Positions 19,037-24,049 of a DNA stretch of 64,000 nucleotides are shown piece after piece (position 1 is the stretch's first letter; each line of letters opens with the position of its first letter). The DNA comes from Eubacteriales bacterium. GTDB taxonomy: Bacteria; Bacillota; Clostridia; Oscillospirales; CAG-272. The stretch lies in assembly GCA_045544195.1 (NCBI GenBank), contig JAZPYO010000022.1, forward strand, positions 12,681 to 76,680. The letters are read 5' to 3'. The notes beneath the pieces are model-generated. The model ran no database searches and was not told where the DNA came from. It was given only the letters and a program-made list of their open reading frames with translations. The position numbers and the translations under genes are program-made.

Positions 19037-20437
19037 TTATTTACTTTCAAAAAACGCTTTAGATGCTTTATGCATATTGTAAACATCCGCTTTTGCTACA
19101 AGCTCATAGGGCGCGTGCATGGATATTACGGGAACTCCTGCATCGATCGTGTCGATATTTCTTTCGGCAATAAATTTAGCAACAGTACCGCCGCCGCCGA
19201 AGTCTATCTTGCCCATTTCGCACGTCTGCCATACAACTCCGTTTTCATTGAATATACGTGCTATCCTTGCGGTATATTCACCCGTTGCATCGTTTGTATC
19301 AGACTTTCCTCTTGCGCCTGTATATTTTGCAAGTCCTATGCCGCATCCGACAATAGCTGAGTTATTCTTTTCAAATGCATTTGCAAAATTGGGGTCATAT
19401 GCCGCACAGACGTCAGCGGAAAGGCACATTGAATTCGCTCTTACCAAGCGCTCGTTTTTGCCCATTGATACTGATATATCAGTTATTATATCATCAAGAG
19501 CACTTCCCTTCATACCCGTAACGCCGTTTGAGCCTGTTTCCTCTTTATCTGCCAACACTGCCATAACTGTATGCTCAGGCGACTGAAGCGAAAACAGTGC
19601 AGTCAGTGACGGATATGCACACACTCTGTCATCGTGACCGTATGATGCAATGAGGCTTCTGTCAAGTCCCACGTCCTTTGCTTTAAGAGCGGGAACTATC
19701 GTAAGCTCTGCGGAAAGGAAATCTTCCTCTGTAATTCCGTATTTTTCGTTCAGAATAGCAAGAACATTCAGCTTTATTTTGTCGTTTACCGCTTCATCGT
19801 CATACGGAATAGATCCGAGAACGATGTTGAGCATTTCTCCATCAACGCCGTCTCTTAAAGACTTTGCACATTGCTCCTGTGCCAGATGGGGCAAAAGGTC
19901 GTTGATATAAAAGATAGGATCGTCATCATTTTCGCCTATGCATACATCGATCCTTTTTCCGCTTTTGTCAGTAATTATTCCGTGAAGTGCAAGCGGGATC
20001 GCTGTCCATTGATACTTCTTTATGCCGCCGTAGTAATGCGTTCTGAAGAAAGCCATTCCGCCTGATTCATATACGGGATTTGCTCTTATATCAATAGCGG
20101 GCGAATCTATATGAGATGCTATTATTCTGATTCCCTTTTCAATATTTTCACTTCCTATGATAAATAAGAACAGGCTTCTGTCGCGGTTTACGTAATAATA
20201 CTTATCGCCTGCCTGGACCTTTGCTCCGAAGTTATATTCCTTAAAGCCGTTTGCCTGTGCCATTTTTACAGCTTCTCTTGATGCTGAACGCGCGGTTTTT
20301 CCAAGATCGAGATACTTTTTATATTCCTCACAATAGCTGAATATCTCATCTCTTTCTTCGGGATTTTTTTCATAAGCATTCTTTTTTGTATATGTCAGCT
20401 TTTCAGAAAGAAGCTGACCTTTTGTTTTTTCACTCAT
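19037..20437 (-). CDS. M18-family aminopeptidase
   Basis: IIASHIDSP, YYGGIKKYQW, GHDDRVC, DKEETGS, GGGGT, ISMHAPYE; start chosen at MSEK (AAAGGT 8 nt upstream). Confidence 0.92.
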   Translation of the reverse strand: MSEKTKGQLLSEKLTYTKKNAYEKNPEERDEIFSYCEEYKKYLDLGKTARSASREAVKMAQANGFKEYNFGAKVQAGDKYYYVNRDRSLFLFIIGSENIEKGIRIIASHIDSPAIDIRANPVYESGGMAFFRTHYYGGIKKYQWTAIPLALHGIITDKSGKRIDVCIGENDDDPIFYINDLLPHLAQEQCAKSLRDGVDGEMLNIVLGSIPYDDEAVNDKIKLNVLAILNEKYGITEEDFLSAELTIVPALKAKDVGLDRSLIASYGHDDRVCAYPSLTALFSLQSPEHTVMAVLADKEETGSNGVTGMKGSALDDIITDISVSMGKNERLVRANSMCLSADVCAAYDPNFANAFEKNNSAIVGCGIGLAKYTGARGKSDTNDATGEYTARIARIFNENGVVWQTCEMGKIDFGGGGTVAKFIAERNIDTIDAGVPVISMHAPYELVAKADVYNMHKASKAFFESK

Positions 20438-20459
20438 TATCATAAACCTTTCTTTCATC

Positions 20460-21023
20460 TTATTCAGCGAGGATCTGTAAATAGACCTCTCTGTTTTTTT
20501 CTACCTTTTTAACATACGCTTCCGTTTCGGGAAAAGGAATATTTATCAAATGACCGTTTTTTGATATTTCATCATCGTCAAGCCATTGTCTCACATTTCC
20601 GTGACCTGCGTTATATGCGGCAAACGTAGTTTGCCATATAAGAAATTCCTTGTAGCAAAACGAAATATAGTATACTCCGCATTGAATATTCGTTTCAGGA
20701 TCGGTTATTTTATCCGCACTGTAAGGTATTCCCGCTTTTCCGCATATCCATTCAAACGTATTCGGCATAAGCTGCATTAAACCTCTTGCTCCCTTTGAAG
20801 ATGTAGCGTCCGGGTCAAAACCGCTTTCAGTTTTGATTATCGCGTAAACAACATCCTTCGGAACATCGTACATTTCCGAATACTTCTCAACATATTCGGA
20901 ATAATGCATGGGATATTTGCTTTTTTCCGCATTGTCAAGAACAGTATCAAAGATAGCTCCCAAGCCTATAGCCGTTACAATCAGTAATATAATAATTATA
21001 CTTCTTTTTATCGCTTCGCCCAT
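20460..21023 (-). CDS. Membrane-anchored lytic transglycosylase (SLT domain)
   Basis: N-terminal TM; AIIKTESGF, SSKGARGLMQLMP, AAYNAG, PETEAYV. Confidence 0.92.
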   Translation of the reverse strand: MGEAIKRSIIIILLIVTAIGLGAIFDTVLDNAEKSKYPMHYSEYVEKYSEMYDVPKDVVYAIIKTESGFDPDATSSKGARGLMQLMPNTFEWICGKAGIPYSADKITDPETNIQCGVYYISFCYKEFLIWQTTFAAYNAGHGNVRQWLDDDEISKNGHLINIPFPETEAYVKKVEKNREVYLQILAE

Positions 21024-22667
21024 TTATTCTCCTTTGAACATGTTCGCATATTGCTCAACAGTCCTTTGCAGCTTCTCGAGTGTTCCGTTATTTTCTATAC
21101 AATAAGTACACTTGTTTCTGAAATACTCTGTTGTATGCTGATTTGAAAGCCTTTCAATTGCCTGTTGCTCCGTTAAAGCATCTCTGAGCATAATTCGCTG
21201 AAGCTGCTTTTCAAAATCCGAAATTACAGCTATCGTAATGTCACATTCGTCGTCAAATCCGCTTTCAAACAACTGCGGCGCATCAATTATTGCACATTTG
21301 AAGCCGTTCATTTCATATTGAAAAAGCAATTCCCTCGTTTTTTTAAGTATATGCCTGTGAGTTATCTTATTAAGACATTCAAGATATGTTCTGTCATTTG
21401 AAGAAAATACTTTTTTTGCAAGTATTTTTCGGTTTATCTTACCGTTTTCTATTATGTCAGCACCGAATTCTTCTACGATTTCCTGTGTCATTTCAGTGCA
21501 GCTTTCAAGCAGCTCGTGATATACAGCATCTGTATCAACTGACGGTATACCGCACTTTTCAAAAAACTCGCATACTGCACCTTTGCCTGACCCGCTTTGA
21601 CCTGTTAAGCCTATGACTGTAAATCCGTCGGCATTTATAATATTGAAGCCTGCCGCACGGATAAGACGGTTAAGGACCGCAAGCCCCACTCCGTCTGTAT
21701 CGGGTATCACGGAATACACGTTCTTTGCCGTGCTTTTATTAAAATCACGCAAGTATCCAAACAAAACATTTGCCTGTCTTATATGTGAACGCTCAAGATA
21801 CTTTACGTTTTCGCCAAAAAGCATATCCTTTGATGTATCATAGCACAGAATACCGACGGTCTTATCATCACGCAGCCGTCTTTTTAAAAATGCTTCAACA
21901 TTCTTTTCTTCTCCGCTTACAAGATATACCGGAATATCCGGAGCATAATGTCTGTATCTCATTCCGGGCGATTCCGCCTTTTCGCCGTTTTCCAGCTTAT
22001 TCAGCACAGCATCTGACACCTTTACATTTGCACACACCGAAGAAAGCATCTGAACATCTACCGCACCGGGACGCAGCAGATGTATTTCATCATCGGATAT
22101 TTTAATAACAGTTGATTCAAGACCGATCTGGCAGTCCCCGCCGTCTATTATCATATCGACCTTACCGTACAGATCCTCTATAACGTGATCTGCCGATGTC
22201 GGAGAGGGTCTTCCTGATGTGTTAGCGGACGGCGCGGCAATAGCAACACCGCTTTTTTCTATTATTGCCCGCGCGATCTCATTTGACGGTATGCGTATCG
22301 CAACAGTATCAAGCCCTCCTGTGACCTCAGACGGTACAGTATCCTTTTTAGGTAAAATAATTGTTAAAGGTCCGGGGGAAAATGCATCTGTGAGCTTATA
22401 GTACAACTCATTTGTATATGCATATCTTTCTGCATCCGATGCCTTTGAAATATGTATTATCAAAGGGTTGTCTGACGGTCGGCCCTTGGCAGTATATATT
22501 TTTTTGGCACTTTCTGAATTTGTTGCATCGGCGCCGAGACCGTATACTGTTTCTGTTGGAAAAGCAACAAGCCCTCCGCTCCTTATCAGATATGATGCTT
22601 TATCTGTTATGCGGTCGTTAATGTCGGAATATATATCTCCTTTTATTACCGCAAGCTCTGTTTTCAT
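21024..22667 (-). CDS. sua5-coaE: Fusion: Sua5/TsaC2 threonylcarbamoyl-AMP synthase (about aa 1-345) + dephospho-CoA kinase CoaE (about aa 348-547)
   Basis: Sua5: VAFPTETVYGLG, KGRPSDNPLIIH, APSANTSGRPSPT, SPGMRYRHYAP, NRLIRAAG. CoaE: VIGLTGQSGSGK, DTDAVYH, INRKILAKKVF, IIDAPQLFES. One uninterrupted ORF. Confidence 0.9.
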   Translation of the reverse strand: MKTELAVIKGDIYSDINDRITDKASYLIRSGGLVAFPTETVYGLGADATNSESAKKIYTAKGRPSDNPLIIHISKASDAERYAYTNELYYKLTDAFSPGPLTIILPKKDTVPSEVTGGLDTVAIRIPSNEIARAIIEKSGVAIAAPSANTSGRPSPTSADHVIEDLYGKVDMIIDGGDCQIGLESTVIKISDDEIHLLRPGAVDVQMLSSVCANVKVSDAVLNKLENGEKAESPGMRYRHYAPDIPVYLVSGEEKNVEAFLKRRLRDDKTVGILCYDTSKDMLFGENVKYLERSHIRQANVLFGYLRDFNKSTAKNVYSVIPDTDGVGLAVLNRLIRAAGFNIINADGFTVIGLTGQSGSGKGAVCEFFEKCGIPSVDTDAVYHELLESCTEMTQEIVEEFGADIIENGKINRKILAKKVFSSNDRTYLECLNKITHRHILKKTRELLFQYEMNGFKCAIIDAPQLFESGFDDECDITIAVISDFEKQLQRIMLRDALTEQQAIERLSNQHTTEYFRNKCTYCIENNGTLEKLQRTVEQYANMFKGE

Positions 22668-23728
22668 TATGATTTAAGCCTTTCTGCCGTATCAACGTTA
22701 ATAATATAATCTATCATTTCGGAAATATCTCCGTTTAAAAAGCTGTCAAGGGCATAGATAGTGTATCCTACTCTATGGTCGGTAACTCTTCCCTGCGGAT
22801 AATTGTACGTTCTGATGCGCTCGCTTCTGTCACCCGTACCGACCTGACTTTTGCGTTCGCCTGCGATCTTATCGTGCTGCTCCTGTGCTTTCATATCATA
22901 CAGCTTTGTCCGCAAAAGCTTCATAGCTTTATCCTTATTCTTATATTGGCTTCGCTCGTCCTGACACTCTATGATGATACCCGTAGGCTTATGATACAGC
23001 CTTATTGCAGATTCTGTCTTGTTTACGTGCTGACCGCCTGCACCGCTGCTTTTGCACGTTTCAAATTTTATATCAGCGGGATTTATTTCTACCTCTACGT
23101 CCTCCGCCTCAGGCAAAACGGCGACCGTTACAGTCGATGTGTGTATTCTTCCCTGAGCCTCTGTTTCAGGTACTCTTTGAACTCTGTGAACACCTGATTC
23201 GAATTTCAGCTTTGAATACGCACCGTCACCGATAACCGTAAAGGAAACCTCCTTAAATCCGCCAAGTCCCGTTTCGTTAACGCTTAAAAGCTCGGTCTTC
23301 CAGCCAACCGACTCGGCATACATTGTATACATACGGTATAAAACGTATGAAAACAGAGCCGCCTCATCGCCGCCCGCGCCTGCACGTATCTCAATTACCA
23401 CATTTTTATCATCGTTTTCATCACGCGGCAAAAGCAGTATCTTCAATTCTTCAAGACACCGTTCAATGCCAAGCCTTGCAGCCTGCAATTCATCACTTGC
23501 AAGAGCACGCATTTCCTCATCAGGCTTATCGCCCAACAGCTCCTCCGCATCTGACTGCATTTTAACGTAAGATTTGTACTGCCTGAATTTTTCTATTATG
23601 GGAGCTAAACGCTTGTATTCCTTCATTAATGCTTTGTATTTATCCTGATCGGAAATTACATCGCTATCGGACAAAGACGCTTCTATACCCTCAAATTTTT
23701 CTTCCGCTTCGTTTAATTTATCAAGCAT
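22667..23728 (-). CDS. prfA: Peptide chain release factor 1
   Basis: [26 protein letters not shown] (PxT specificity motif), [20 protein letters not shown]. Confidence 0.98.
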
Positions 23729-23927
23729 TGCCGATATTCTCCGAGCTTTCTATTTTTTTTATATTCTTTTCCAATTTGACTCTCGGAACGATAACATCGT
23801 GTCCGCACGTCATGCAAGTTATTTTTATATCTGAGCCTACACGCAGCACCTTGAACATTTTACTGCCGCACGGATGCTGCTTTTTCATTGTAAGCACGTC
23901 GCCTATACTGATTTTTGGTATTTGCAT
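23721..23927 (-). CDS. DUF951-family small protein
   Basis: [41 protein letters not shown] pattern; position next to prfA is typical in Clostridia. Confidence 0.85.
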
Positions 23928-24014
23928 ATATACCTCTTAAAAAATTTATATCAGTTATTATATCATATACATTATTTTAAATCAATATTATTATTGTAAT
24001 TTTTAAATTAATAA

Positions 24015-24049
24015 GAACGGAGGTATCGGTTTAACCGATATCTCCGTTC
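24015..24049 (-). terminator. Intrinsic terminator after the giant gene
   Basis: GAACGGAGGTATCGGTT / AACCGATATCTCCGTTC long stem 7 nt from the stop codon. Confidence 0.8.

Follow-up and report, generated by a model that had tools for sequence, protein, structure and literature searches.

Described fusions of Sua5 and CoaE enzymes

The synthesis of threonylcarbamoyl-AMP, assigned to the Sua5/TsaC family, and the final reaction in coenzyme A (CoA) synthesis, assigned to the dephospho-CoA kinase (DPCK) CoaE, are both regarded as essential. Surveys of the enzymes for N6-threonylcarbamoyladenosine (t6A), a modification of tRNA, have described fusions of TsaC/Sua5 with Kae1-like domains (HypF and TobZ), with HemK (Mycoplasma genitalium) and with TsaD/TcdA (TsaN), and neither CoaE nor CoA is mentioned in them (PMC4615747, PMC9654439, PMC10321239). 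Here, we have analyzed a gene in which a Sua5 and a CoaE are joined in a single reading frame (sua5::coaE). It occupies positions 21024-22667 of the reverse strand in a stretch of 64,000 nucleotides (nt) from contig JAZPYO010000022.1 (assembly GCA_045544195.1, Eubacteriales bacterium, a gut member of the Clostridia, Oscillospirales lineage CAG-272); this whole stretch is referred to as the window, and coordinates without a contig name are positions in it. The gene had been singled out in a first-pass annotation made from the sequence alone, which regarded such a fusion as not known to be characterized. Consistent with this, no paper describing it was found in the above surveys, and full-text literature searches for the Sua5-CoaE pair or for fused t6A enzymes returned nothing relevant on the fusion. 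The architecture is undescribed in the literature, yet common and automatically annotated in sequence databases, where NCBI names the fused proteins 'threonylcarbamoyl-AMP synthase' only and JGI names them 'Sua5/YciO/YrdC/YwlC family protein/dephospho-CoA kinase'.

Comparison with the individual enzymes shows how far each half is conventional. Residues 1-345 resemble the Sua5/TsaC2 proteins of Pyrococcus abyssi (6F87), Thermotoga maritima (9D3H) and Sulfolobus tokodaii (2EQA) at 36-42% identity, with both domains and with the KxR and SxN motifs. The difference is the complete extra enzyme at the C-terminus, the solved or described Sua5 proteins being without a CoaE domain. Residues 350-540 match the CoaE of Thermus thermophilus (1UF9), Legionella pneumophila (4TTP) and Escherichia coli (1VHL) over the full length and keep the P-loop Lys and the DxD Asp. 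Unlike stand-alone CoaE, however, this half has no start codon of its own, is tethered by its N-terminus to Sua5 and has a Walker A loop ending in GKG rather than GKS/T. In solved structures, no chain spans both the Sua5 and the CoaE halves.

Several described fusions share one side of this architecture. The M. genitalium protein MG259, a TsaC/HemK fusion (Thiaville et al., 2014, PMC4615747), likewise joins a TsaC-family enzyme to an enzyme of a different reaction. Its partner, however, is a methyltransferase acting on release factors and not a CoA enzyme, and its TsaC is of the single-domain form. The genes prfA, hemK/prmC and sua5/tsaC commonly adjoin in bacteria, and MG259 would then be another fusion of neighbors. 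HypF, TobZ and TsaN (TsaD-TsaC-SUA5-TcdA, 8IDE) also hold a YrdC/TsaC domain within a multi-domain protein, but there the partner consumes the adenylate made by YrdC and the two are functionally coupled. We know of no chemical link of a YrdC-type adenylate to CoaE. On the CoaE side, the eukaryotic CoA synthase (2F6R), in which phosphopantetheine adenylyltransferase (PPAT) is joined to DPCK, and the mycobacterial CoaE-UPF0157 protein (6N39; PMC2765170) also contain CoaE as a module of a longer chain, and the extra UPF0157 domain of Mycobacterium tuberculosis CoaE has been reported as a folding aid (PMC2765170). PPAT belongs to the CoA pathway itself and UPF0157 has no enzymatic role of its own, whereas the partner found here is a complete enzyme from another, unrelated pathway. 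The present protein is not of the COASY (PPAT-DPCK) type either: its CoaE half is preceded by Sua5 and not by PPAT, and CoaD is encoded separately.

Domain organization and conserved motifs

The gene is a single open reading frame (ORF) of 547 amino acids (aa) that starts with ATG and contains no internal stop. The ORF together with Pfam and NCBIfam searches confirmed what the first-pass annotation had read from it, that is, a complete two-domain Sua5, a short linker (AAGFNIINADGF) and a complete CoaE. The Sua5 half consists of a YrdC/TsaC catalytic domain (residues 27-201, 22065-22589; PF01300, E 9e-62, profile positions 2-178 of 178) followed by a SUA5 C-terminal domain (residues 204-340, 21648-22058; PF03481, Sua5_C, E 4e-25, profile positions 2-136 of 136). 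After a linker of about four residues, the CoaE domain covers residues 351-530 (21078-21617; PF01121, E 5e-38, profile positions 2-178 of 180). All of these features lie on the reverse strand, as do the gene parts, genes and promoter-like site of the window given below. The 547-aa protein also passed the cut-offs of two NCBIfam equivalog models, TIGR00057 for L-threonylcarbamoyladenylate synthase (208 bits against 123) and TIGR00152 for dephospho-CoA kinase (120 bits against 65.6).

KxR (K61-G-R63) and SxN (S147-A-N149), the catalytic motifs of the Sua5/TsaC family, lie within the YrdC domain and are invariant in 50 fused homologues. The same holds in the CoaE half for G356, G359, G361 and K362 of the P-loop, for several Arg residues and for D380 of the DxD motif (D378-T-D380). 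As read from the sequence, the Walker A loop (GQSGSGKG, residues 356-363, 21579-21602) has Gly at the position where Ser/Thr is usual. Adenylate kinases also end this loop in GKG. The ending was found in 7 of 31 fused (23%) and 15 of 68 split (22%) CoaE sequences of the order; being equally frequent in both, it appears to be a lineage variant that is not tied to fusion. A link between GKG and fusion was considered, as all three fused species of the genus and none of the unfused congeners have it, but was rejected on this order-wide frequency.

Authenticity of the open frame

An independent Logan assembly of another strain from another sample (SRR24653896) contains the same gene; the two copies are 98.5% identical in nt and differ by 25 substitutions but by no indels, and the junction is open, with one linker residue changed (G348R). 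Two more congeners also have the fused frame, their proteins being 89% and 68% identical to that of the window. In a search for Sua5+CoaE architectures, which the first-pass annotation had proposed, all three domains were found together in over 100 clusters of proteins called on other assemblies (44-99% identity, 517-566 aa). On these comparisons, an assembly or sequencing artefact can be taken as excluded for practical purposes.

Origin of the fusion within the genus

Three of the 11 sampled species of the source genus carried the fused gene, and the other eight had separate sua5 and coaE genes. In these eight, and in one further public assembly, Sua5 is a 343-aa protein ending in ..AAGFQIIKV, and CoaE, in a 204-aa frame, begins with MKIIGITGQSGAGKST. 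Only 1 nt separates the sua5 stop from the coaE ATG, and the two genes are in different frames (..AAG GTG TAA T ATG AAG..). The junction of the fused species reads ..AAT GCC GAC GGA TTT ACA... Relative to the split congeners, it has neither the stop nor the AAGGTG Shine-Dalgarno sequence, has gained 2 nt and has TTT in place of the Met codon. In the junction alignment, codons 346-349 (A-D-G-F, 21621-21632) stand in for the Val codon, the stop, the single nucleotide and the Met codon of the unfused congeners. These codons fall inside 21600-21660, the interval for which the first-pass annotation had considered a missed stop or indel. Several coordinated differences of this kind are not those of a single-base error. 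No in-frame ATG, GTG or TTG occurs between codons 328 and 384 of the fused gene, and thus CoaE appears to be made only within the long chain. Split and fused species do not differ in the gene order around the junction (DUF951-prfA-sua5-coaE-slt-M18).

To place this change, a maximum-likelihood tree was built from concatenated Sua5 and CoaE sequences (99 rows, linker columns left out). The three fused species formed a clade (support by the Shimodaira-Hasegawa-like approximate likelihood ratio test, SH-aLRT, 96) that was sister to the eight split congeners (95) inside the genus clade (100). The genus clade is in turn nested in a clade of 57 rows, 53 of which are split. Given this nesting of the fused trio among split rows, the fusion is a derived and fairly recent gain in the lineage, made in the ancestor of the source species and its two sister species. 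The first-pass annotation had counted relatives encoding two separate proteins against the fusion; such relatives do make up most of the sampled species of the genus, but they date the fusion and do not refute it.

Recurrence in the order and specificity for one junction

We also measured the frequency of the fusion in the whole order. A fusion was counted only if the spanning match was free of stops, and in-frame neighbors with an internal stop were left out. The loci inspected agreed with this rule: the 26 stop-free spanning matches all proved to be fused genes, and each of the 23 that contained internal stops proved to be two in-frame neighbors. True fusions were present in at least 44 of 401 genomes of the order (11%), which belong to some 29 genera in 13 of the 28 families, and this number is a floor, because long-linker fusions register as two matches and were left out. 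One of them is found in G033 (C1:466247-467905), where a single frame of 591 aa contains both halves, with about 100 nt between them. A fused ORF of 639 aa was seen in G195 (L090). Several genera contain both split and fused states. All verified named carriers of the fusion are metagenome-assembled genomes (MAGs); two cultured candidates, Ruthenibacterium lactatiformans 585-1 and Gemmiger sp. An50, were rejected, as their full-length matches proved to be split adjacent genes.

Outside the order, 145 genomes from about 55 families yielded no Sua5-CoaE fusion. Some of these genomes (G437, G444, G472, G501, G527, G536 and G552) have Sua5 in stop-free frames of 480-565 aa in which the match covers the Sua5 part only, and these frames may hold different C- or N-terminal fusion partners.

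On the 99-row tree, the split/fused label requires a minimum of 11 changes, at least eight of which are forced by well-supported branches; since the choice of rows favored fused ones outside two families, these changes set a lower bound on the number of events and give no rate. The conserved RAAGF motif and the P-loop of CoaE are only 12-17 residues apart in most fused proteins, which leaves almost no linker. The spacer between split sua5 and coaE genes has a median of about 6 nt, with many overlaps, and therefore loss of the stop, with or without a small indel, would be enough for fusion. However, no fusion was found in 287 gene pairs at five other junctions of the operon in related genomes, which are equally tight or tighter (DUF951-prfA, 0 of 48; prfA-sua5, 0 of 91; coaE-slt, 0 of 62; slt-M18, 0 of 54; coaE-M18, 0 of 32). 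Thus, mutational ease is not the whole story: either the sua5-coaE pair uniquely tolerates fusion, the C-terminus of Sua5 and the N-terminus of CoaE both being free, or its fusion is favored. The locus is a clean and datable case of operon neighbors becoming one gene, with both states within one genus and many independent repeats in the order, and offers a natural system for studying rates of fusion and fission and the reasons why this junction, unlike the others, undergoes fusion.

Selective constraint and predicted structure

The ratio of nonsynonymous to synonymous substitution rates (dN/dS) was compared between a fused pair (G000/G001, G000 being the source genome) and a split pair at similar divergence (G002/G005). 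It was 0.039 for the Sua5 half and 0.135 for the CoaE half of the fused pair, and 0.047 and 0.143 for the two separate genes. Selective constraint on both halves is unchanged by fusion. Faster evolution of CoaE after fusion was considered, since fused and split congeners share about 50% identity in CoaE and about 72% in Sua5, but was rejected, as this ratio is also seen in unfused pairs and dN/dS does not differ.

An AlphaFold2 model, based on an alignment of fused homologues, had a mean predicted local distance difference test score (pLDDT) of 91.7 and a predicted template modelling score (pTM) of 0.68. In this model, the last SUA5 strand (residues 343-345) is followed by four residues and then by the first CoaE strand (350-356), the linker having a pLDDT of about 81. 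Residues 1-345 of the model superposed on Sua5/TsaC2 crystal structures with target-normalised template modelling (TM) scores of 0.92-0.94 over about 348 columns, and the C-terminal 200 residues or so on CoaE structures with scores of 0.78-0.86. Sequence matches to solved structures gave the same division (residues 24-345 to P. abyssi Sua5, 6F87, E 1e-77; residues 350-538 to T. thermophilus CoaE, 1UF9, E 1e-20). The domains are thus predicted with confidence, whereas their mutual orientation or docking is not. A rigid Sua5 bearing a CoaE whose orientation is not fixed with confidence would be compatible with the high pLDDT and the moderate pTM.

An older seam between two gene blocks

The first-pass annotation had regarded prfA-sua5 and coaE-slt as two familiar neighborhoods that were joined by the fusion itself. 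In five genomes from other orders of the class, prfA-sua5 were adjacent in three and coaE-slt(-M18) in four, always at separate places, which bears out the first part of this proposal. In the class-wide sample, sua5 and coaE were on different contigs where both were listed. Within the order, the prfA-sua5 and coaE-slt-M18 blocks stand head to tail, and the seam lies exactly between sua5 and coaE. However, eight of the 11 congeners, like most members of the order, have the arrangement prfA-sua5-coaE-slt with two separate genes. Hence, the juxtaposition is old and the fusion of the ORFs later, local and recurrent, and the second part of the proposal does not hold. Judged from this distribution, the seam formed near the base of the order, as two separate genes. 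Named records of the order include Acutalibacteraceae, Oscillospiraceae, Ruminococcaceae and Oscillibacter, that is, Oscillospirales-type Clostridia.

Two minor observations were made on the distribution of these blocks. Many genera of the source's family have the permuted order coaE-slt-M18-prfA-sua5 (L015, L018, L021, L022, L025, L026 and others), a pattern that would result from tandem duplication and subsequent loss of the outer copies. In addition, Clostridia-type Sua5 genes (L196 and L203, 43-45% identical to that of the window) were found on MAG contigs labelled 'uncultured Bacteroides sp.' and 'Candidatus Bathyarchaeota archaeon', which are probably mis-binned.

Partner enzymes in the source genome

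The source genome (2.28 Mb, a 62-contig draft, 97.7% complete) has only one YrdC-family match and only one CoaE (PF01121) match, both of which are the 547-aa ORF, and no match to the archaeal-type DPCK (DUF359). Each half is thus the only candidate for its essential step in this genome, and gene content points to the CoaE half as its route for the final CoA step. As to the remaining t6A enzymes, TsaE is present (C57:14138-14518), and TsaD-family matches were found at C34:22788-23642, at C57:13675-14028 (the latter TsaB-like) and at a third place.

CoaD is present as a separate frame of 158 codons on contig C62, whereas CoaBC (DFP domain) and the type I and type III pantothenate kinases had no match in the source genome. 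CoaBC was not found in any of 24 other sampled genomes of the family; among 41 relatives, five had it and 36 did not. With CoaD and CoaE present and CoaBC widely not found, CoA synthesis in the lineage seems to be reduced to its last two steps, and the lineage may depend on salvage of pantetheine or 4'-phosphopantetheine. It should be noted that, as the fused protein is named by one pipeline as threonylcarbamoyl-AMP synthase only, metabolic reconstructions of many gut Oscillospirales would miss their sole DPCK. This matters all the more in a lineage that already appears to be without CoaBC and pantothenate kinase.

Interpretation of the fusion

In our opinion, the fused gene is probably a tolerated and recurrent read-through fusion that yields a bifunctional enzyme, with two independent modules and no functional coupling between them. 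Its product would be one polypeptide of about 61 kDa with two independent catalytic modules. We infer that the N-terminal Sua5/TsaC2 would make threonylcarbamoyl-AMP for the TsaB/TsaD/TsaE t6A machinery, and that the C-terminal CoaE would phosphorylate dephospho-CoA to CoA. The starting state was a pair of neighboring genes of one operon, the coaE ATG lying 1 nt away from the sua5 stop, an arrangement suggestive of translational coupling. In the ancestor of the three fused species, loss of the stop, of the Shine-Dalgarno sequence and of the ATG, together with the gain of 2 nt, brought coaE into the sua5 frame with a linker of about four residues. Similar events have been repeated in the order, as mutation can readily close this junction and the resulting protein is tolerated. 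The first-pass annotation had offered two options, a coupling of translation fidelity to CoA supply or a neutral fusion. The unchanged dN/dS and the lack of confident docking in the AlphaFold model favor the neutral one, although recurrence at a specific junction may reflect some advantage.

Several points weigh against this reading. The supporting tree is a gene tree from biased sampling. Short spacing alone is insufficient, as other equally tight operon neighbors never fused, and a specific advantage may therefore be involved. The Walker A Lys is followed by Gly and not by Ser/Thr, which is atypical for CoaE, though common in the order. Finally, pTM is an indirect proxy for docking.

The alternative that survives best is an adaptive fusion, in which Sua5 stabilizes or folds CoaE, or a 1:1 dosage is fixed, or the two enzymes already associate (the Rosetta-stone situation), so that the fusion has been repeatedly fixed by selection. 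Independent changes of state numbering at least 8-11 on the tree, restriction to the sua5-coaE junction against 0 of 287 elsewhere, and a very short linker that forces both domains close together would all fit it, and M. tuberculosis provides a precedent for a fused domain needed for CoaE folding (PMC2765170). On the other hand, about 89% of the sampled genomes of the order are split and sister species differ in state, dN/dS is the same after fusion, and the model (pTM 0.68) has no confidently predicted interface. In addition, Sua5 and CoaE have no known common substrate or pathway, and reviews on t6A are silent on CoA. Even the junction specificity may only mean that other proteins of the operon need a free terminus, for example, the membrane-helix-like N-terminal stretch of the SLT protein. 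We therefore consider selection for the fused state rather unlikely.

About equally doubtful, or slightly more so, is a real but undescribed link between Sua5 and CoaE in Oscillospirales, with Sua5 acting as an intramolecular folding or stability partner of CoaE or with the enzymes in physical association. As Rosetta-stone reasoning looks for, the pair is fused in some genomes and separate in others, and junction-specific recurrence is compatible with a functional link, without being proof of it. If the enzymes do associate, t6A synthesis would be co-regulated with the last step of a salvage-only CoA pathway. An adaptive link would thus reveal an unknown connection of tRNA t6A synthesis to CoA supply; otherwise, the protein is an ordinary bifunctional enzyme.

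The remaining alternatives have little weight compared with the tolerated read-through fusion. The fused ORF could be translated and the two enzymes then parted by proteolysis of the linker, or CoaE could be supplied by internal initiation. This is very unlikely, since codons 328-384 hold no in-frame ATG, GTG or TTG and the AAGGTG Shine-Dalgarno sequence has been lost, while about four residues between two beta-strands, with a pLDDT of about 81, would make a poor protease target. Slightly less probable still is a degenerate or repurposed CoaE half that no longer makes CoA. Although the Gly at the usual Ser/Thr position of its Walker A loop (GQSGSGKG) might suggest it, the same Gly occurs in 22% of the unfused CoaE of the order. 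Moreover, this half is the sole DPCK candidate in a genome that has CoaD, scores above the TIGR00152 equivalog cut-off, has invariant residues at the DxD Asp, at the P-loop Lys and at several Arg positions and shows a dN/dS of 0.135. As for an artefact in which a junction stop or indel was missed, the draft state of the source genome (62 contigs) is its sole attraction, and it is hardly conceivable given that another strain, assembled independently, has the same frame, with 25 substitutions but no indels, and given the fused frame in two more species of the genus (89% and 68% identity) and the coordinated changes of the junction (stop, 2 nt gained, ATG to TTT, Shine-Dalgarno sequence lost).

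The operon around the fused gene

The fused gene lies within an operon on the reverse strand. The first gene encodes a DUF951 protein (23721-23927; PF06107, E 1e-25) and overlaps by 8 nt the start of prfA, which encodes peptide chain release factor 1 (22667-23728; PCRF and RF-1 domains). The last base of prfA is the first base of the fused gene. The lytic transglycosylase gene slt (20460-21023; Pfam SLT, E 4e-32) begins directly after the stop of the fused gene, and the N-terminus of its product has a hydrophobic stretch that, as read from the sequence, resembles a membrane helix. An M18 aminopeptidase gene (19037-20458; Peptidase_M18, E 8e-82) is the last of the conserved block, which is kept across the order. 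Ahead of the operon, a promoter-like site (TTGATT-17-TATAAT with TG, 23957-23985), recognized by consensus match only, lies between the DUF951 start (23927) and a hairpin. This hairpin (24015-24049), with a perfect 16-bp stem, stands between the promoter-like site and the stop (24057) of an upstream giant gene of 2756 aa, and is likely to be a terminator that parts the transcription unit of the giant gene from the DUF951-prfA operon.

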